This document shows positions 18,375 through 40,876 of a stretch of DNA of 64,000 nt, piece by piece. The notes beneath the pieces are model-generated. The model was not told the DNA's origin and searched no databases. It saw nothing but the letters and a program-made list of their open reading frames with translations. The translations under genes and the position numbers were made by a program. Position 1 is the first letter of the stretch; every line of letters begins with the position of its first letter. The stretch comes from a virus, in IMG/VR virus record IMGVR_UViG_3300035670_000067, positions 46,385 to 110,384 of that record. One strand, given 5' to 3'.

Positions 18375-18525
18375 GAAACATGCCAATTCGGCAACGTAGC
18401 AGGAAACATGCCAATTCGGCAACGTAGCAGGAAACATGCCAATTCGGCAACGTAGCAGGAAACATGCCAATTCGGCAACGTAGCAGGAAACATGCCAATT
18501 CGGCAACGTAGCAGGAAACATGCCA
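18375..18525. repeat. 28-bp perfect tandem repeat, 5 copies plus partial
   Basis: gaaacatgccaattcggcaacgtagcag at 18375, 18403, 18431, 18459 and 18487; internal TGCC-N5-GGCA dyad. Confidence 0.95.
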
Positions 18526-21487: not shown

Positions 21488-21892
21488 GCAATCCCAGCAA
21501 TGTATTTTGTGGCGTATTACAATACCAAATACTGAATCTGTAATCTGTAACCCGCTACCATCTGCTGATCTATAATCGTAACTTAATCTACTGAATCACG
21601 ATCGCAGTGGGGGATCGTGATTCAACAGTTACTCTTATGATTCCTGATCGTGAGTCGCACCCGTACCGTCCAAGGCACTCCCCCTGTATTCACACCCTGA
21701 TCCTCTTTCTATAACTATAATCTTAGATCACAACACTAAATGGTGGTTTGCGCTCACTGATCAATTATTGGCTCCCACTCCCTAATCGTTGATCTATATA
21801 TATACGATCAAGATTCACCGTTCAATATCATATATAATGATCTTCTTCCATTCTGGATCGTATTTCTGTATTCGCCATCCGCCTCATGCCCC

Positions 21893-21922
21893 AAAAAGAA
21901 GTGGCGCGGGTACCCGCGCCAC
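21893..21922 (-). terminator. intrinsic terminator
   Basis: gtggcgcggg/cccgcgccac stem plus U tract. Confidence 0.85.
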
Positions 21923-21928
21923 TACCGT

Positions 21929-22249
21929 TTACCGGCAGTTTTGCTGCTCGCAGTAAGCCGTCCCGCGATGCTCCCACTCGCTCGACTTCTGGAACCGCAC
22001 CTTGCCGTGCGGCTTACGGAATCCGCTACCGTTCGCGTGGCACCGGATAGCGGCGATTCGCGGCATGTTGGCCGGGGCGATATCGTGGCCGGTCGCTTCC
22101 GTCTGTTCCAGGCACACTTCCCGGAGGTCAAACGGCCTGCCATCCACGAACACCAGCTTGGGCTTCCAGCCGGTAATGAATCCGGTGGCTTGCAGTGCCA
22201 TCAGTGCCCCGGCATCCTTGTAAACCTTTACGTGCTGACCGAGTTCCAT
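21929..22249 (-). CDS. early protein, paralog of 41221..41562
   Basis: Shared LGQ.V.V and PAN.PRI..IRC.ANG.GF..PH.K..F.KSS.WEHRG. Confidence 0.8.
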   Translation of the reverse strand: MELGQHVKVYKDAGALMALQATGFITGWKPKLVFVDGRPFDLREVCLEQTEATGHDIAPANMPRIAAIRCHANGSGFRKPHGKVRFQKSSEWEHRGTAYCEQQNCR

Positions 22250-22296
22250 GTGAGTCTCTCCTTTTGGGTTGGTGCGGCGTTTTTGCCGCTACCAGT

Positions 22297-22324
22297 ACAA
22301 TAGCCCTAGCCAGCATTGGAACAA
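22297..22324 (-). promoter_or_regulatory. promoter TTGTTC-N16-TATTGT
   Basis: 16-bp-spacer family. Confidence 0.55.
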
Positions 22325-22577
22325 GTGGGTAGAAGTTTTTGTTTTTGTCTTGTTTTCTTGGAGAGTCGCGGCCTCCCCGCCCCGATCCCGATTCATATCT
22401 TATTATCTTGATAACTCCCCTTGCCCCTCCGCCCCGATCCCGATTCATGTAATCTGAATACGATCGTTGGATATCCAAGGAATCTCAATACGAATCTTCA
22501 ATAGATCGCAATATATAGGGATGATCGCGAATCCACGCAATATATGGCGAATCCGCAATATAGATCCGCTCACAATA

Positions 22578-22690
22578 TAAAAGAAAATGGCGGAGGTCAC
22601 TCGCTGACACAGCGCGACCTCCGCCACCAACCGAAAGGAGTCCGAACATGAGCATGGATATGGAGAGGACGTATTAGGCCCTCCCCATAT
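22578..22690 (-). ncRNA. candidate 3'-UTR sRNA antisense to the early-gene leader
   Basis: Hairpin 22658-22690, single-stranded CAUGUUCGGACUCCUUUCGGUUGG, then terminator hairpin 22589-22626 and U tract. Confidence 0.4.
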
Positions 22691-22695
22691 AAGAA

Positions 22696-22905
22696 CTAAC
22701 AAAACAGAATGGCTACCGGCATGTTTTCCGTGAGGTTTGTACCTCCGGTCATGACCACGTTACGCGGCATTGTGATTTCCACGATGACCTTGTGCGTGGC
22801 CACCATGTATCCATTCTGTGAAGGCATCAGCTTGCCTACGAATCTCAGGCTGTTGTGGTCCAGCCGAACGTCCACGGTCTTGTTGATAAATGATAGCAGA
22901 CTCAT
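22696..22905 (-). CDS. early hypothetical protein
   Basis: GAGG RBS before MSLLSF. Confidence 0.6.
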   Translation of the reverse strand: MSLLSFINKTVDVRLDHNSLRFVGKLMPSQNGYMVATHKVIVEITMPRNVVMTGGTNLTENMPVAILFC

Positions 22906-22913
22906 GTGAACCT

Positions 22914-23186
22914 CTACTTGAAGTTGGCGATCTTGCGCCAGGCATTCGGGCCGAGGCCGTTGATAAGCTCCTGGAACAGCCACAAGCCGTTGACCAGAGC
23001 GTAGCAGTGGCCGGTGTCCGTGAACACCCAGTAGACCTTGTTCTCGAACACCCGGCCAATCTCGTCGTAGAGTCCCTCGTCTTTGGTAAGCCGAACGTCA
23101 GCCCGCTTGGCCTTTTTCAGCGTCAGGCTAACCTGGACCTTTTCTGCAGCCCTGATTGCATCGGCTGCCCACTGTGGGATTTCCAT
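22914..23186 (-). CDS. early hypothetical protein
   Basis: CAACCGAAAGG leader and promoter. Confidence 0.7.
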   Translation of the reverse strand: MEIPQWAADAIRAAEKVQVSLTLKKAKRADVRLTKDEGLYDEIGRVFENKVYWVFTDTGHCYALVNGLWLFQELINGLGPNAWRKIANFK

Positions 23187-23240
23187 GTTACTGCCCTTTC
23201 GGTTGAGCATAGGCGCGGCACCATTGCCTTGCCTGCCCTT

Positions 23241-23268
23241 ATTATAGGCCGCCACGCTTATCATGCAA
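23241..23268 (-). promoter_or_regulatory. promoter TTGCAT-N16-TATAAT
   Basis: Consensus -10. Confidence 0.8.
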
Positions 23269-23505
23269 GCGGCCAGATAAACTCTTTATTGTCTGGTTTT
23301 TCTGGTAGATCCGGCCTATTATCTGCCGTTGTGGCCAGTGTACCCTATAAGATTACCCTGTAGGACGCATTTTAGAGCCCTCTAGATGTACCCTGTTTGC
23401 TGGCCTAGCCTACCATGGGCAACTAGTTTTGTGTGCTCAAAACACGGTCACAACGCATCCGCGGCCGGCGCAGGATCCAGATTCACCGTCCATTTCCTCA
23501 ACAAA

Positions 23506-23533
23506 TAAAAAGGCCCGGAGTGAATCCGGGCCG
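23506..23533 (-). terminator. intrinsic terminator
   Basis: ggcccgga/tccgggcc stem plus U tract. Confidence 0.8.
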
Positions 23534-23537
23534 GTTG

Positions 23538-23759
23538 TCAGACGTGCATGACCTGTCGCATATGGCCGTACAATCCGGTCAGGCCACAGTAGACCTCGCT
23601 GACGTCGCCGTTTGCCAGTGCCGTTTTCGCGTATTCCAGGAACGGCTTGCACCCGTCGTCCCTGAGCTGCGTCGCCAGAAGCTCGGCGTTGGCGACGTCC
23701 TTCTGGGCCTCCGAAATCGTGGGCGGGGTGATGTCAACCTTGTACGTTGCGAATTCCAT
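23538..23759 (-). CDS. early hypothetical protein
   Basis: AAGGAGG RBS; terminator downstream. Confidence 0.7.
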   Translation of the reverse strand: MEFATYKVDITPPTISEAQKDVANAELLATQLRDDGCKPFLEYAKTALANGDVSEVYCGLTGLYGHMRQVMHV

Positions 23760-23761
23760 GG

Positions 23762-23899
23762 TCAGTCCTCCTTGTTGCTGGGGCCGGGCCGCTTGATTCC
23801 GGCGGCATCATCGTCCTTGTCAATCATGCCGGCCCAGATTACGCCGCCGCCCCAGATCAGAGCGCACAGGATTAGCAAGCAGTACCACAGAGAAGACAT
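23762..23899 (-). CDS. 45-aa membrane protein (not in the ORF track)
   Basis: GGAGG RBS; MSSLWYCLLILCALIWGGGVIWAG... Confidence 0.6.
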   Translation of the reverse strand: MSSLWYCLLILCALIWGGGVIWAGMIDKDDDAAGIKRPGPSNKED

Positions 23900-23949
23900 A
23901 CAGACCTCCATCGGTTGTTTGGGTAAGGCGTTTTGCCTTACCTGCCACT

Positions 23950-23977
23950 ACTATAGGTGCGGCCAGTATTGGAACAA
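23950..23977 (-). promoter_or_regulatory. promoter TTGTTC-N16-TATAGT
   Basis: 16-bp-spacer family. Confidence 0.65.
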
Positions 23978-24793
23978 GTGGTTTGAATAAATCTGTTTGT
24001 CTTTATTATCGGTGTCCGGACCTCCGTCCCGATCCAGATTCACATTCTAGTATCGTATCCGGAGGCTCCGCTAGGATCGTGAATTGGGGTCCCCGAATGA
24101 TCCGGATTCAACCATACCGAAATAGGATCTTGATATTATAAGACGATTCCCGATCTTACTTCTATGTCGCGCATATATATTCAAGATCGTGAAATATATA
24201 ACTGATTCTAACTCTCTAGGATGCATCAGATCTTTGATCTGACAATCCTAGAAAGAAAAAGAAAAAATCTATAAAGCTACATTGTAACTTTGCACCATAC
24301 TATTATTTCACTATTTACAAATCACAATATCACATTTTACATTTTATTTTGCGGCAACTGGCAATACCACTATTTACAATACAGACTCCATATCTAGAAA
24401 CCAGAACATCTTCCCAGATCTCTTTTGTATAGCCCCCATTATATATGGCACACATACCCAACATATGGATTCATGATATCCGTATTCTAGAATCATCTTT
24501 ACTTTGTGCAACTGGCAATACGGCATTGTAGCAATCGGCAACTGGCATTGCGGCAAACTGCAATCGGCAACGCTACTTTGTGCAACTTTTTCTGTAAAAC
24601 AGACTCTAGATATCTGTGAAACCGAAACGGTATCTTTTTATGTAAACACGGGCGGGGCAATATGTTACGTCACAGAAAGAGTCGTTTTCTATGACCAGAT
24701 CCGGTCAAATTTGTGTATAAAAACGGTCTCAGATCTTTCAAAAACATGATCATGAATCCGTATTTGAAGTGGAATTCCTCTCCCATCCTAAAT

Positions 24794-24860: not shown

Positions 24861-25119
24861 CCATCATTTTTTGTAATTTCTTTACAGATCTACAATCCCT
24901 TTGAAACTTCTTTACAATCCGACAAGATTACCGAAAGATCAGAGGTACTGTTACCCTATACCATACGCTCTCTCATCATATCATATCATCATATAGAAGT
25001 AGATATATGAGAGCCTATCTCTTTTGCTTTGTTTTTGTTGAGAGCCTCCCACCTCTTCCATATAGATAATCAGCAGAAACTAATTTGATTCTCTGATTTT
25101 TATAGGGCGGCCCGCCACT

Positions 25120-25317: not shown

Positions 25318-25478
25318 TAGACATCTTTCTGAATTTCTTGCGCGAGATCGTTGATTGTTACATTAGCTTGATTTGCTATAATGGCGAGCTCCTGCATCGC
25401 CGAAATGTACTTATCTAGCGGCAGTTCAAAGAAACGCACCCGTACAGCATAGAACAGACAAAGGAGTTCTTCAGACAT
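25317..25478 (-). CDS. hypothetical protein
   Basis: MSEELL...; coupled at both ends. Confidence 0.45.
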   Translation of the reverse strand: MSEELLCLFYAVRVRFFELPLDKYISAMQELAIIANQANVTINDLAQEIQKDV

Positions 25479-26100
25479 AGGATTTCTCAGAACTGTTAAT
25501 CTGTTCTTCTCCACCGAAAATGCTTTGACCGCAAACCTGGCTTTCGCCGAAAACATGAACATTCCCAAAGATTCGAGCATATCCGTAGACATGAGCGTTA
25601 TCGTGGATGTGAGCATTTCCAGAAACATTCGCATTTTCAGAGATGCGAGCTTCCTCGTAGACCCAAGCATTACCGAAAATGCGAGCTTCGTTGAAAACCT
25701 GAGCGTAGCCCATGACGCAAGCCTTATCATTGATAAGAGTTGCATCATAGACACGCGCATAACCGAAGACACGAGCGTGACCGAAGACACGGACATAATC
25801 ATAAACGCGAGCGTGACCAAAGATTGCGGCTTGCTCAGAGATGCAAGCAGCATCTTGGACTATGGCATATTCATAGATGCGAGCGTTTCCGTAGATCTGA
25901 GCGTCGTTCATGACCCGAGCTTCTCCATAGACCTGAGCATTTTCGCGAACCCAGCAGTCGCCGTATTGACTAAGATTCCGTTCCGATTCGATCCACCCGC
26001 CGAGATCGCCAGCCTTGACGTCATCGAAATTATGCAACGCACGGATGCGGCGAAGCTTCGGAAAATCTGGGTGGGTTTCGTGAAGGATTTCGTACTTCAT
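25471..26100 (-). CDS. hexapeptide-repeat (left-handed beta-helix) protein, copy 1
   Basis: MKYEI...RIRAL..F..VKAGDLGGWIESERNLSQ head plus VxGxA repeats. Confidence 0.85.
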   Translation of the reverse strand: MKYEILHETHPDFPKLRRIRALHNFDDVKAGDLGGWIESERNLSQYGDCWVRENAQVYGEARVMNDAQIYGNARIYEYAIVQDAACISEQAAIFGHARVYDYVRVFGHARVFGYARVYDATLINDKACVMGYAQVFNEARIFGNAWVYEEARISENANVSGNAHIHDNAHVYGYARIFGNVHVFGESQVCGQSIFGGEEQINSSEKSYV

Positions 26101-26281
26101 TTTTGATTACCTTTCTGCTGAAGCTCTTGCTGAAGTTCTCGTTTCATATCTCGAAGACGCTGCATACCGTCTTTGTCATCTTCATGAGAAGCGGCGCAAA
26201 CTCGGTTTTTGGCAATCAAGTAAAACCAAGAATCTCCGCCACCAATCATCTTTGTGATTTTGATGTCTTCCATTGATTACC

Positions 26282-26557
26282 TCACTCGATGATGGTGGTA
26301 ACTTCGGGGATGCTTGCCGTGGTGTGAAGCAGATACCACTTGCCATTGTCAAACATGGCGTACACGGGAAGTTCTTCAACAAGGTTGAACTCGTAGAACA
26401 TGGCGCTCATGGTTGGCTTGATGTCGCTGGTTGCTGCGATGAGTTCTCGAATAGTGGCCGGATCATCCGCTGGCATACAATCCACAATGTCCGGGATAAG
26501 GTAGTGATACTGCTCGTGCTTCTGCAGCTTGTTCTTTGCCCATTTGATTACGTTCAT
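26282..26557 (-). CDS. early hypothetical protein
   Basis: AAGGAG RBS and promoter. Confidence 0.7.
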   Translation of the reverse strand: MNVIKWAKNKLQKHEQYHYLIPDIVDCMPADDPATIRELIAATSDIKPTMSAMFYEFNLVEELPVYAMFDNGKWYLLHTTASIPEVTTIIE

Positions 26558-26603
26558 TGTGAACTCCTTGTTTGTGTTGTGTAGCCTTTGTGCTACTGCC
26601 CTT

Positions 26604-26631
26604 ATTATAGCTGTTCTTGGCCTTCTTGCAA
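26604..26631 (-). promoter_or_regulatory. promoter TTGCAA-N16-TATAAT
   Basis: Consensus -10. Confidence 0.8.
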
Positions 26632-26818
26632 ACTACCGGATAAAGTCTTTGTTGTCTTGTTTCTACGGAAGAATCAGCCAATTTGTGTATGACCAGAATG
26701 TTCTTGCAATTTACTGATCAGTCTGTAGATCTTTCAACTAAAATGCGTTACGTTTGCTTGCTCTATTGGAGCCAGAGTTTAGTGGCCAATATAATCTAGT
26801 TGCGAGGAATCATTTAGA

Positions 26819-27286
26819 TTAATCCTTTACACTAAGATTTCCGGAGACCTGAGCGTTGCCGCAGACCTGAGCGTTGCCGCAGACCCGAGCGTTTTCGTGG
26901 ACACGAGCGTTGTCGAAGACCCAAGCGTTTCCGTAGACCCAAGCGTTTTCGCAGACATGAGCGTTTCCAGAGACCAGAGCGTTGCCGAAGACCCAAGCGT
27001 TTTCGCAGACACGAGCGTTTTCGCAGACACGAGCGTTGCCGAAGACCCAAGCGTTTCCGTAGACCCAAGCGCTGCCGGAGACCTGAGCGTCGTCGAAGAC
27101 CTGAGCGTTTCCGTAGACCTGAGCGTCTCCGTAGACCCAGCAGTCTCCGTACCGGCTAAGATTCCGTTCCGATTCGATCCAGCCACCGAGGTCGCCGGCC
27201 TTGACGTTACCGAAATCCTGCAACGCACGGATACGGTGAAGCTTCGGGTTGTCCGGGTGGACTTCGGTAGTGATTTCGTACTTCAT
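26819..27286 (-). CDS. hexapeptide-repeat protein, copy 2
   Basis: Same head; 18-nt tandem units. Confidence 0.85.
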   Translation of the reverse strand: MKYEITTEVHPDNPKLHRIRALQDFGNVKAGDLGGWIESERNLSRYGDCWVYGDAQVYGNAQVFDDAQVSGSAWVYGNAWVFGNARVCENARVCENAWVFGNALVSGNAHVCENAWVYGNAWVFDNARVHENARVCGNAQVCGNAQVSGNLSVKD

Positions 27287-27322
27287 TTCAGTTTACCTTT
27301 CCGGCTTGGTTTGCCTAACCGT

Positions 27323-27350
27323 ATTATAGCCTGTCGGCATTATCCTACAA
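27323..27350 (-). promoter_or_regulatory. promoter TTGTAG-N16-TATAAT
   Basis: Consensus -10. Confidence 0.75.
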
Positions 27351-27523
27351 GCTACTGGAAAATGTAATTTGTTTCTAATCTGTTGGATTGTTGCAGACCG
27401 TTCTAGACGCGTTTAGGCTGTTACTGGCGTACCAGTGTACCCGCCGCCCACTGAAGCTGTCTAGAGTGGTCTATAGCGTGTCTATTGGCATATCATATAG
27501 GGCTAGGCTATTGGCGGCACAGC

Positions 27524-28048
27524 CTACTGTCTTATAATCGTATTATCGCAAATGGTTGAGTCATCCTTAATTCTAGCAGTTCCACAGACTATTGCATTTT
27601 CATGTATTCTAACGTATCCACCGATAATGACTTGTTCGTAGACGTGTGCGTTATCGAAGATCTTAGCATTACCAGAAATCCACGCATCACCGTGTACTAT
27701 GGTATATCCATAGATTTCAGCATATTCTTGAATTAAAGCGCGTTCATAGATTCTTGCGCATCCATGAACAAGTGCATTATCTTGAACTACAGCATTCCCC
27801 CTAACAGAAGCATTTTGGAAGACTCTTGCAAAACTGAGAATCTTTGCATGGTCACTAACCTGAGCTCTGTCGTAGACTTGGGCATTTTCATAAACCCAGC
27901 AACTTCCGATCTGGCTAAGATTATATTCAGACTCGATCCAACCGCCATAATCTCCAGCCTTGACGTGCCCAAAATCCTTCAACGCGATAATGCGTCTAAG
28001 TTTCGTGTTGAGGGGGCAGATTTCCGGAGTTATCTTGTATTTGTCCAT
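27524..28048 (-). CDS. hexapeptide-repeat protein, copy 3 (diverged)
   Basis: KLRRIIALKDFGHVKAGDYGGWIESEYNLSQ. Confidence 0.8.
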   Translation of the reverse strand: MDKYKITPEICPLNTKLRRIIALKDFGHVKAGDYGGWIESEYNLSQIGSCWVYENAQVYDRAQVSDHAKILSFARVFQNASVRGNAVVQDNALVHGCARIYERALIQEYAEIYGYTIVHGDAWISGNAKIFDNAHVYEQVIIGGYVRIHENAIVCGTARIKDDSTICDNTIIRQ

Positions 28049-28049
28049 G

Positions 28050-28322
28050 TCACACCAGTGGGTGATATTTACATGTTCTACGTTCTGCTTCAGACGGAGG
28101 TTCGGGTAGATCAACCGAATCTTCCACTGGCATCCAAAATGTCACATCATTAGAAAGAAATCCTTCATTGTTGTAGAATTGATCAAGAACAACTTTCCCA
28201 CGTTTTGTTGTGCAGAACTGTCCCCTGTAGACCATGCCAAATACTTCAAACCAATAGAATACATGCTGGTATTCTTTCGGTTGTTCTTGGTCTATTCTAC
28301 GCCATTTGTTAGACATGTTCAT
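28050..28322 (-). CDS. DUF551-like protein
   Basis: WRRI..EQP...VTFWMP...LPEPP pattern. Confidence 0.55.
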   Translation of the reverse strand: MNMSNKWRRIDQEQPKEYQHVFYWFEVFGMVYRGQFCTTKRGKVVLDQFYNNEGFLSNDVTFWMPVEDSVDLPEPPSEAERRTCKYHPLV

Positions 28323-28323
28323 G

Positions 28324-28536
28324 TCATCCCTTGAAGTTGATTTTGCGTAGGATTCTCGCAGCGGCGAGCGTATCAATTCTCAACAATGCTGGAACTGATG
28401 ACAATTCATCGAACTCTGCCAACACGCATCCGGTTTGTGATTGAAATTTACATACGAGTTCACACGCTTCAGCGTGTTCTTTCATCTCGTATTCTCGGTT
28501 ACAGAGTTCACAGACATACAGATTCCTTTCGCGCAT
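28324..28536 (-). CDS. small zinc-finger protein
   Basis: YVCELC...AEACE. Confidence 0.5.
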   Translation of the reverse strand: MRERNLYVCELCNREYEMKEHAEACELVCKFQSQTGCVLAEFDELSSVPALLRIDTLAAARILRKINFKG

Positions 28537-28696
28537 GATGATACCTCTTCAGCTTTGTGCGAGTTTATACAATACCAAGATGATGAAAAATATGATAAAG
28601 CAACCTACGCAACCTTCGCCGCCACCGTCATGGTGATAGATATCAAGACGCATTGCTTATTCCTTTGTTACTTAAGGACCGACACTCAGATATCCA

Positions 28697-29179
28697 TTAG
28701 TCAGTGAAAATTCCTTCCAACAAATATTCCTTACTACAGACCCGAGCGTTTCCACAGACCCGAGCGTTACAGAAGACACAAGCGTTTTCGTAGACCCGAG
28801 CGTTTTCGTAGACCCGAGCGTCTCCGTAGACCCAAGCGTCTCCATAGACCCGAGCGTCTCCGTAGACCCGAGCGTCTCCGTAGACCCAAGCGTTTCCGTA
28901 GACCCAAGCGTTTCCCATGACCTGAGCGTTTTTGGAGACCTGAGCGTTTCCCATGACCTGAGCGTTTTTGGAGATCCGAGCCTCGTCGTAGACCTGAGCG
29001 TCTCCGTAGACCTGAGCGTCTCCGTAGACCCAGCAGTCTCCGTACTGGCTAAGATTCCGTTCCGATTTGATCCACCCGCCGAGGTCGCCAGCTTTGACGT
29101 CACCGAAATCCTTCAACGCACGGATACGGTGAAGCTTCGGATTGTCCGGGTGGGTTTCGGGAAGGATTTCGTACTTCAT
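28697..29179 (-). CDS. hexapeptide-repeat protein, copy 4
   Basis: Same head; leader nearly identical to copy 2. Confidence 0.85.
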   Translation of the reverse strand: MKYEILPETHPDNPKLHRIRALKDFGDVKAGDLGGWIKSERNLSQYGDCWVYGDAQVYGDAQVYDEARISKNAQVMGNAQVSKNAQVMGNAWVYGNAWVYGDARVYGDARVYGDAWVYGDARVYENARVYENACVFCNARVCGNARVCSKEYLLEGIFTD

Positions 29180-30157: not shown

Positions 30158-30200
30158 ACAGTTGGATAAAGTGTTTATTGTCAGCGTTTAGATTATCTTG

Positions 30201-30273
30201 AGCCAATGGTCGGATTTGAACCGACGACCGGTTGATTACAAATCAACTGCTCTACCGACTGAGCTACACTGGC
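30201..30273 (-). tRNA. tRNA-Thr(UGU)
   Basis: Cloverleaf; gttga-tt-TGT-aa-tcaac; no encoded CCA. Confidence 0.92.
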
Positions 30274-30292
30274 TTTTCACAACTGCGAACGA

Positions 30293-30378
30293 TGGTGTCT
30301 GGAGAGGGACTCGAACCCTCACTTCCTTACGGAAAGCAGATTTTAAGTCTGCTGCGTATGCCATTTCGCCACCCAGAC
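30293..30378 (-). tRNA. tRNA-Leu(UAA)
   Basis: gcaga-ct-TAA-aa-tctgc; long variable arm; CCA. Confidence 0.93.
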
Positions 30379-30719
30379 TGGTGGACCTGTCGGGAGTTGA
30401 ACCCGAGTCCTATATAGCTTCTACAATGAAGTTGTTACATGCTTGTTCAATCGTTTATGGTACGATTAACAGAACCATGACTGTCTTTCCAGTCCGTCAT
30501 TCGTATCTCTTCCGACTGTCACCCGGAACCACCGGGATCGTCAGGCTGATTTACTGCTCAGCGAGCGAAGCAGGCTCCGTTAGGCCGCGAGGGCCACGGG
30601 AGCGGGGAAGGACAGAACGGGTTTGGCAGTTCTGTTTTGACCGGAGTTTTGCGAGGCCAACGGTCATCCTCGGCATGAATTCATTATCTCCACTATACAG
30701 TCGAAACCTTTTCAGGCCC
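30379..30719 (-). ncRNA. ssrA: tmRNA
   Basis: 5' GGGCCTGA...TTCGAC; 3' GAC.CGGGTTCAACTCCCGACAGGTCCACCA; tag ORF 30627-30580 reads AKPVLSFPAPVALAA*. Confidence 0.93.
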
Positions 30720-31463: not shown

Positions 31464-31492
31464 ATGGGCTGATTTTATTTGTTTGTGTCTAG

Positions 31493-31566
31493 TAGGCCCG
31501 ACTGGACTTGAACCAGTGACCCGCGGCTTATAAGACCGCTGCTCTAACCAACTGAGCTACGAGCCT
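31493..31566 (-). tRNA. tRNA-Ile(UAU)
   Basis: gcggt-ct-TAT-aa-gccgc; A73; no encoded CCA. Confidence 0.9.
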
Positions 31567-31573
31567 AGAGAAA

Positions 31574-31759
31574 TCAAGCCTTATCGAAAATGGTGTCCTG
31601 GCATTTCTGACAAATGCCAGAAATCTTATATTCGCGCTTAGACCGTTCGTCACGGAAAGACTTTTCAGTAACATCACAGCCACAGAAAACACACTTATCC
31701 ACAGCGATAAACTTGTTAGCGAAGATCCGAATCGGATTTGTTACTTCGGTCGTTTTCAC
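31574..31759 (-). CDS. small zinc-finger protein
   Basis: GTG start with AAGGAG; CVFC...ISGICQKCQD. Confidence 0.65.
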   Translation of the reverse strand: MKTTEVTNPIRIFANKFIAVDKCVFCGCDVTEKSFRDERSKREYKISGICQKCQDTIFDKA

Positions 31760-31781
31760 ACTAGCTCCTTTCGTTGAGTTT

Positions 31782-31858
31782 TGGTATCCCCAACGGGGTT
31801 CGAACCCGTAGCCTTCAGGATGAAAACCTGATGTGGTAGCCACTTCCACCATGGGGAC
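31782..31858 (-). tRNA. tRNA-Glu(UUC)
   Basis: tcagg-tt-TTC-at-cctga; CCA. Confidence 0.88.
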
Positions 31859-31861
31859 ATT

Positions 31862-31938
31862 TGGTGCTCCGGCCGGGATTTGAACCCGGGACTCCGACAT
31901 TAAAAGTGTCGTACTCTAGCCAACTGAGTTACCGGAGC
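31862..31938 (-). tRNA. tRNA-Lys(UUU)
   Basis: cgaca-ct-TTT-aa-tgtcg; CCA. Confidence 0.92.
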
Positions 31939-40484: not shown

Positions 40485-40572
40485 TGGCGGAGAGAGTGGG
40501 ATTTGAACCCACGGTACATCGCTGTACTCCAGTTTTCAAGACTGGCGCTTTCAACCGCTCAGCCATCTCTCC
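40485..40572 (-). tRNA. tRNA-Ser(UGA)
   Basis: ccagt-ct-TGA-aa-actgg; long variable arm; GCCA. Confidence 0.93.
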
Positions 40573-40580
40573 GTAATCCT

Positions 40581-40781
40581 TTACTTATCGTTCCACTTGA
40601 ATGTTGGCTGATTCATTGTTTCGTTTTCATACACGACATAACTTGCGTATCCTCTCAACACAGCTTCTCTTCTCGTCTTTTGTAACAAACTATCGAATCT
40701 AAACATCAAAACCACTATAAACGAAAACGCCACAGCTATCGGAACAAGCATGAACCACAATAGAGAATTTTCGCTTTTCAT
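40581..40781 (-). CDS. small membrane protein
   Basis: N-terminal TM segment; AAGGAG RBS. Confidence 0.6.
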   Translation of the reverse strand: MKSENSLLWFMLVPIAVAFSFIVVLMFRFDSLLQKTRREAVLRGYASYVVYENETMNQPTFKWNDK

Positions 40782-40799
40782 TTTTTGCTCCTTTGTGAG

Positions 40800-40876
40800 T
40801 GGCGTCCCCAGCAGGACTTGAACCTGCGACCCGCAGATTAGAAATCTGCTGCTCTATCCAGCTGAGCTATGGGGAC
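40800..40876 (-). tRNA. tRNA-Arg(UCU)
   Basis: gcaga-tt-TCT-aa-tctgc; GCCA. Confidence 0.93.

Follow-up and report, generated by a model that had tools for sequence, protein, structure and literature searches.

An inverted copy of the early-gene leader in the 3' UTR of a phage message: a candidate self-limiting anti-leader

The two-gene message and its 3' UTR

The window analysed here makes up the final 64 kb of a viral contig of 110,384 bp from IMG/VR (CheckV completeness 76%), the DNA of which comes from four metagenome runs on subsurface and soil material in one study. The contig belongs to a tailed phage, its gene content includes terminase, portal, protease/capsid, primase, ligase and thymidylate synthase, and nearly all genes of the window are carried by the minus strand. 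A two-gene message in the early region is the subject of this work. Its features, with one short reading frame on the opposite strand, are as follows.

23241..23268, minus strand: early sigma-70-type promoter, TTGCAT, 16-nt spacer, TATAAT (found by regular expression; 32.2 bits by weight matrix)
23184..23205, minus strand: 5' leader and start site of gene 1, CAACCGAAAGGGCAGTAACATG, with Shine-Dalgarno sequence (SD) and AUG; predicted partner of the 3'-UTR linker
22914..23186, minus strand: gene 1, a 90-aa ORFan with promoter and leader directly upstream
22696..22905, minus strand: gene 2, a 69-aa ORFan with its own GAGG ribosome-binding site
22658..22690, minus strand: first 3'-UTR hairpin, 13 predicted pairs with an 11-bp core stem (from folding)
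22627..22657, minus strand: open linker of 31 nt, the candidate anti-leader, reverse complement of a full early start site; core at 22628-22650, CAUGUUCGGACUCCUUUCGGUUG
22578..22626, minus strand: intrinsic terminator, stem of 10 bp and 5 bp (22626-22589) followed by the U-run AUUUUCUUUUAU
22648-22677, plus strand: 9-codon ORF MSMDMERTY behind the inverted leader, probably not expressed

Gene 2 ends with a TAG stop codon (22698-22696), which is separated from the terminator stem by 69 nt. Five other cassettes of the early region have intrinsic terminators at 23532, 21923, 20664, 19851 and 18989, in these the corresponding gap is 2-11 nt. The sequence 5' of the first hairpin includes a single-stranded stretch rich in A and U, and the terminator stem has at its base GGCGG/CCGCC, the same as in the small hairpins of the early leaders.

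The minus-strand RNA 22700-22570 folds with -54.3 kcal/mol (z = -5.4 against shuffles), and the linker is unpaired in the centroid structure. An earlier note on this DNA had described a layout of hairpin, seed and terminator on the minus strand, and the fold reproduces it (22690-22658, open linker, 22626-22589). The plus-strand RNA of the element reaches -43.3 kcal/mol, which is 11 kcal/mol weaker than the minus-strand RNA. One position in the core stem of the first hairpin pairs as G-U in the minus-strand RNA; in the plus-strand RNA this position is a mismatch of A and C.

A promoter search of the minus strand between 22690 and 22950 gives at best 0.5 bits, against 28-38 bits for real promoters, so this sequence is presumably made as the tail of the message and a small RNA could arise from it only through processing. 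A single transcription unit, ending at the terminator 22626-22589, includes the promoter (23268), the leader (23205-23184) and the linker (22650-22628). Judged by these signals the element is not a free-standing gene but the 3' UTR, 69 nt long, of an early message that encodes two ORFans and extends from promoter 23268 to terminator 22589; the stand-alone trans-acting sRNA of ~110 nt that the earlier note proposed is not supported. Across the element the contigs of two samples show no difference. A search of 21800-23400 against Rfam at E <= 10 gives no match at the element, two sub-threshold matches fall at a different terminator and none reaches the gathering thresholds.

Both proteins of the message lack relatives in the collections searched. 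No homologue of gene 1 or gene 2 was found among 5.8 billion clustered proteins or 1.84 billion representatives, Pfam gives no match for either (for gene 2 at E <= 10), and gene 1 has no match in the Atlas structure search. The neighbouring proteins and those of genes 20180 and 22249 find nothing in IMG/VR. Megablast of 21500-24500 against phages and a search with the portal protein also give no match, and the phage collections hold no close relative.

The spacer from this terminator to the next promoter (22330-22585) is densely filled with short repeats and rich in GATC and GANTC. It includes four units of TATATTGCG type (minus strand, ~22507-22580) and two copies of CCGCCCCGATCCCGATTCAT, a third copy of which lies at 24024. 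This spacer could hold regulator-binding or methylation sites.

Several features elsewhere in the window were recorded. A tmRNA gene (30379-30719, minus strand; Rfam 123.9 bits, tag peptide AKPVLSFPAPVALAA) adjoins a tRNA cluster, and seven tRNA genes (Thr, Leu, Ile, Glu, Lys, Ser, Arg) are found at 30200-30378, 31492-31938 and 40485-40876. The large terminase gene (9663-7387, minus strand) contains an insert of ~153 aa at 9390-8932 that splits the P-loop (LLLGKG / SGKD). The insert starts with CLSGET and ends with PEN followed by Ser; it looks like a mini-intein and is not flagged by Pfam. In relatives this protein has larger inteins with homing-endonuclease domains (PF14528, PF14890).

The early cassettes and their shared leader

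The early region is an array of self-contained cassettes, each with promoter, leader, ORFan and terminator, in which near-identical promoter pairs and repeats are present. Between 15 and 31 kb, 12 minus-strand sites and a single plus-strand site match the regular expression TTGNNN-N16-TANNNT-A. A weight matrix was trained on nine early promoters from these sites. The training promoters score 28-38 bits against a background mean of -26, and the matrix recovers two sites that were not used in training (33827 and 35240). In the window 11 promoters score at least 24 bits, all of them on the minus strand. The 5' order of a cassette is promoter, then within ~10 nt a short hairpin of GGCGG/CCGCC type, then the block A(C/T)(A/C)AACCGAAAGG, with the ATG 7-10 nt further on. 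Codon-usage scoring gives no strand separation in this GC-rich early region. The promoters and leaders are listed below.

30157, 27350, 26631, 23977, 23268, 22324, 21487, 20255, 19432, 33827, 35240, minus strand only: early promoters, TTGNNN-N16-TA(T)NNT-A; near-identical pairs are 21487/20255 and 23977/22324
16836, 17135, 17832, 19376, 20199, 21449, 23203, minus strand: copies of ACCGAAAG, each 7-10 nt before an ATG
16821, 17119, 17814, 19359, 20180, 21432, 23186, minus strand: the ATGs behind these copies

The window contains 10 exact matches to ACCGAAAG, against 1.77 expected, and none of 100 shuffles reaches 10. The earlier note had named the seven genes listed above as sharing a leader motif, and a copy does precede every one of their ATGs. 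An eighth gene (22249) has the variant leader AACCCAAAAGG. Two further copies are of another kind, the one at 24930 (plus strand) is part of a TTACCGAAAT repeat block with no ATG nearby, and the one at 28281 lies within an ORF. The 10-mer AACCGAAAGG is present five times on the minus strand of the whole 110-kb record, each time in a leader, and once on the plus strand, at 22629.

Two other groups of repeats are found in this part of the genome. At 18381-18505 there are five tandem units of 28 nt, each made of a small hairpin TGCCGAATTGGCA followed by TGTTTCCTGC, which overlap long low-complexity ORFs. The region 25471-29179 (for example 28697-29179 and 25471-26100) contains paralogous genes that share an MKYEI head and have beta-solenoid or hexapeptide repeats of YdcK type (PF18836, E about 1e-19). 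Some of these paralogues have their own promoters and the variant leader AGCCGGAAAGGTAAAC.

The plus-strand copy of the leader is CCAACCGAAAGGAGTCCGAACATG and occupies exactly 22627-22650, where the earlier note had placed it. The plus strand from 22620 to 22651 shares 27 of 32 bases with the gene 20180 leader, from CCGCC through ATGA, with a local score of 35 against a maximum of 26 among 200 shuffles. The other early leaders align to the inverted copy over the core block. The copy keeps the 11-mer CAACCGAAAGG intact, and its ATG follows the SD block at a distance of 9 nt. The alignment covers the hairpin base and the SD block as well as the spacer and the ATG; the conserved promoter block is missing. 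Because the match is so long and scores above all shuffles, we regard the copy as a genuine inverted version of the full early leader, homologous to it by sequence and not a product of chance. The genome contains a single instance.

One explanation of the copy is that it is a relic of cassette shuffling. In this case module recombination would have inverted a leader fragment with its first codons and placed it beside the terminator or fused it to the terminator, only the terminator would be functional, and any pairing would be incidental and unselected. We consider this nearly as likely as the anti-leader function put forward below. It is in keeping with the array of repeated self-contained cassettes and near-identical promoter pairs, with a copy that has no promoter and just 9 codons behind it and occurs once, and with a sequence closest to the leader of another cassette (20180) and not to that of its own. 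Against it, both core motif and ATG are preserved in full, remodelling of the flanking hairpin has given a terminator of 15 bp whose U-run lies on the opposite strand, and pairing in the first hairpin is better in the minus-strand RNA.

Recombining arrays of a similar kind are the PeSL cassettes of T4-type phages. In the passages of the PeSL literature that were searched, these are described as ORFan arrays with strong sigma-70-like early promoters, a conserved SD and start region and stem-loop terminators (PMC2839356, PMC4122927). The present array resembles them in its repeated modules of sigma-70-like early promoter and stem-loop around ORFans, ORFan status being confirmed for two of the genes here. 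On the same passages, repeated modules favour shuffling, which is a possible origin of the inverted leader and agrees with a relic. The PeSL stem-loop, as described there, differs in that it precedes the promoter, and the phage studied here is not T4-like. The passages hold no description of an inverted leader within a 3' UTR.

The copy could instead act on the plus strand, where an antisense transcript directed into the convergent cassette would use it as the ribosome-binding site for the 9-aa ORF. The earlier note had named such a role as the observation that would count against its proposal. The start-site features are complete, with hairpin, AACCGAAAGGAG and a 9-nt spacer to the ATG, and a weak terminator-like hairpin is present on the plus strand beyond the cassette (23271-23298). 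Yet the best plus-strand promoter score in 22350-22600 is -4.5 bits, a consensus scan finds none and the promoter block is the part absent from the alignment. The 9 codons are followed by convergent minus-strand genes, with no gene downstream on the plus strand, the U-run belongs to the other strand, the plus-strand RNA folds more weakly and the genes of the window are nearly all on the minus strand. We regard a plus-strand role as very unlikely. The ORF was also considered as a truncated paralogue of the N-terminus of gene 20180, this is unsupported, the alignment ends at ATGA.

The leader and its inverted copy also form perfect 11-bp inverted repeats (22628-22638 and 23195-23205) that bracket genes 1 and 2. 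They might allow the coding part of the cassette to be flipped on and off as DNA, and in the flipped state promoter and leader would drive only the 9-aa ORF. Such a switch is extremely improbable: no serine or tyrosine recombinase is found in the 110-kb record, the metagenome contigs show no strand-switch joints and the repeats are simply the common leader.

In the sequences searched, neither the cassette nor the leader family turned up in any relative. None of 34 terminase-related loci (46-62% identity) has the ACCGAAAG leader family, and a pattern search for leader and anti-leader in IMG/VR and JGI metagenomes returns only unrelated contigs, apparently chance matches.

Predicted pairing in cis

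When the full message of ~650 nt is folded, the linker pairs with the start site of gene 1. Bases 23205-23194 pair with 22628-22639 (12 pairs, over the SD) in this equilibrium prediction, which leaves out ribosomes and co-transcriptional kinetics, and 23191-23184 pair with 22644-22650 (7 pairs, over the AUG). The pair probabilities are 0.94 for the 12-pair and 0.70 for the 7-pair helix, and they are stable across the 5' and 3' ends assumed for the message and from 15 to 50 C.

In these predictions the tail makes the start site much less accessible. SD and AUG have a mean unpaired probability of 0.62 in an RNA that ends at the stop codon and of 0.17 with the tail; with shuffled linkers (n=10) the value is 0.35-0.64. 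Among six cassettes folded alike, this one has the lowest start-site accessibility (0.17 against 0.33-0.57) and the highest long-range start-site pairing (0.82 against 0.11-0.60 in the others). The most robust partner of the linker is thus predicted to be the leader of its own cassette, in cis.

Anti-SD-like sequences hundreds of nucleotides downstream have been shown to pair with the ribosome-binding site in vivo, to inhibit translation and to promote decay, and such sequences are depleted from genes and selected against (PMC12697547). In the minus-strand RNA of the window CCUUUC occurs 3 times, against 8.5 +/- 2.9 expected. Because long-range anti-SDs repress and are avoided, a 19-pair complement to the message's own start site is, by analogy, unlikely to be silent. 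The same reasoning argues against a relic of cassette shuffling, an anti-SD with 19 potential pairs to its own ribosome-binding site is not expected to be neutral (PMC12697547).

Predicted pairing in trans and RNA-handling proteins

The 126-nt tail was paired with the 5' fragments of 16 messages, which gave the following net binding energies.

Leader of 20180: -27.0 kcal/mol
Leader of 21432: -21.7 kcal/mol
Leader of 17814: -18.8 kcal/mol
Leader of 16821: -18.2 kcal/mol
Leader of 19359: -16.1 kcal/mol
Leaders of 17119, 22249 and the tail's own message: about -13 kcal/mol
Start sites outside the family: -8.7 to -18.4 kcal/mol

Only 20180 and 21432 are clearly above the unrelated start sites, the other leaders (-13 to -19) overlap with the background. 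In a genome duplex scan of 27,584 windows, after collapsing, 21432 ranks 3rd, 20180 4th and 23186 9th, with the plus-strand complement of the element counted as 1st. A plain duplex-energy scan is unspecific, random windows reach -33 kcal/mol. On these models trans pairing is possible for the whole leader family and clearly specific for two members only.

These energies bear on the claim of the earlier note that one RNA shuts off the early regulon. Its basis, complementarity between the linker and the leaders, is real and not due to chance; the breadth of the regulon is another matter, two leaders alone (20180 and 21432) being clear of the background. The corresponding model has a processed RNA of ~110 nt that would silence the whole AACCGAAAGG early regulon, or host mRNAs with a strong SD, in trans. 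The open seed, terminator hairpin and U-tail with an AU-rich single-stranded stretch upstream are laid out as in 3'-UTR-derived sRNAs, and the net energies for 20180, 21432, 17814, 16821 and 19359 and the ranks of three family start sites in the genome scan are in its favour. The lack of an own promoter speaks against it, as do unrelated start sites and random windows with comparable energies, which leave modest regulon specificity apart from the two targets. The intramolecular partner should also out-compete targets in trans unless the RNA is processed. We therefore consider silencing of a whole regulon by a processed RNA to be unlikely.

A further point against such an RNA is that no phage Hfq, RegA, ProQ or RNase III was found in the record, which is 76% complete and in which the RegA model was run with no positive control. 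Gene 2 gives a lead in this direction. Its Atlas model, itself of low confidence (pLDDT 0.56), has LSM, Hfq_1 and the RimP C-terminal domain as look-alikes with TM scores of 0.54-0.61, values that mean little for proteins as short as this one. By eye the sequence resembles the Sm1 and Sm2 motifs. Profiles for Sm, LSm and Hfq are negative for gene 2, searches of the phage record with PF17209, PF01423 and PF21979 are negative as well, and an AF2 single-sequence model (pLDDT 43) is too poor for a structure search. An Sm-like fold of gene 2 is a weak, unconfirmed lead from these models.

Taken together with the tail, gene 2 could in principle form a self-contained riboregulatory module, in which it would be a minimal Sm-like chaperone and a released 3'-UTR RNA of ~110 nt would silence the AACCGAAAGG early regulon and possibly host mRNAs with a strong SD. 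We give this idea very little credence. If true, it would be a phage-borne pair of chaperone and sRNA that times early-gene shut-off.

Comparison with known systems

The c4 RNA of P1 and P7 and the CI RNA of satellite P4 are cut out of transcripts of the very family under their control, and they base-pair with complementary sites that recur over ribosome-binding sites. Both stem from 5' leaders of immunity operons in temperate elements. The phage element differs in that it lies in the 3' UTR of a lytic-type early cassette, and it is not matched by the C4 covariance model of Rfam.

CpxQ, SroC and DapZ are Hfq-dependent sRNAs derived from 3' UTRs. They consist of the mRNA terminator hairpin with its U-tail and an open seed upstream, and as type II sRNAs they lack a separate promoter. 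The phage tail shares the terminator hairpin, the U-tail, a predicted open seed and the lack of an own promoter; it differs from them in that processing, chaperone and stable product are only hypothetical.

The closest parallel to pairing in cis is the icaR message of Staphylococcus aureus. An anti-SD motif in its 3' UTR pairs with the SD of the same mRNA, blocks initiation and makes a substrate for RNase III (PMC3868564). The phage message is like icaR in having, in its 3' UTR, an anti-SD that matches its own SD, with occlusion predicted in silico. In both cases the 3' UTR contains a pyrimidine-rich anti-SD complementary to the message's own ribosome-binding site, and the block and the duplex of RNase III type seen for icaR are predicted here. 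The anti-SD of the phage differs in being a full inverted copy of the leader, with 19 pairs including the AUG. Its target leader, unlike that of icaR, is common to ~8 sibling genes, and it stands in an early ORFan cassette of a phage. The phage UTR is 69 nt long against more than 300 nt for icaR, and the pairing in the phage is a predicted one. A related pairing of 5' and 3' UTR is found in hbs of B. subtilis (PMC5737220).

The long-range anti-SDs from a B. subtilis reporter screen (PMC12697547) are also comparable. The phage anti-SD lies ~560 nt past the ribosome-binding site, which is within the range over which pairing takes place in vivo. Such sequences are avoided in that study, whereas in the phage one is present and extended, and this suggests either purposeful use or a recent accident.

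A self-limiting anti-leader

We propose, tentatively and as something short of a probable explanation, that the 3' UTR is an icaR-like self-limiting anti-leader which may also act in trans. The proposal is built on the anatomy of the message, its leader homology, the absence of other promoters and the predicted folds. That leader and tail pair in the cell, and that this pairing has been selected for, we infer.

In the proposed mechanism the tail would have been built from an inverted copy of an early translation-initiation leader, comprising hairpin base, AACCGAAAGG SD block and ATG, and the hairpin of this copy would now serve as the intrinsic terminator of the message. Once the full message has been made, the linker (22650-22628) would pair with the message's own SD and AUG (23205-23184) and close the mRNA into a loop. 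The loop would block further initiation on gene 1, and the leader-tail duplex of roughly 20 bp might be a cut site for host RNase III. The outcome would be a self-limiting pulse of expression. The linker may also pair with sibling leaders in trans, best with 20180 and 21432; the form acting in trans could be the full mRNA or a processed 3' fragment stabilised by the two hairpins.

Some observations count against an anti-leader. The greater likeness of the tail, by alignment, to the 20180 leader than to its own would not be expected if pairing in cis had been selected for. The genome has no second element of this kind, other cassettes also show predicted long-range start-site pairing (0.24-0.6), and in a recombinogenic array a recent inverted fragment, neutral or mildly harmful, is plausible.

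If the anti-leader proposal is true, the message would have a compact limit on early-gene expression that consists of RNA only, in which the tail mirrors the leader that launches it, all within a small cassette of ~700 bp. Control of the 5' end by the 3' UTR is documented for few bacterial mRNAs, icaR and hbs among them, and to our knowledge it is hardly known in phages. Since the leader is shared, one such tail could dampen the expression of sibling genes too.
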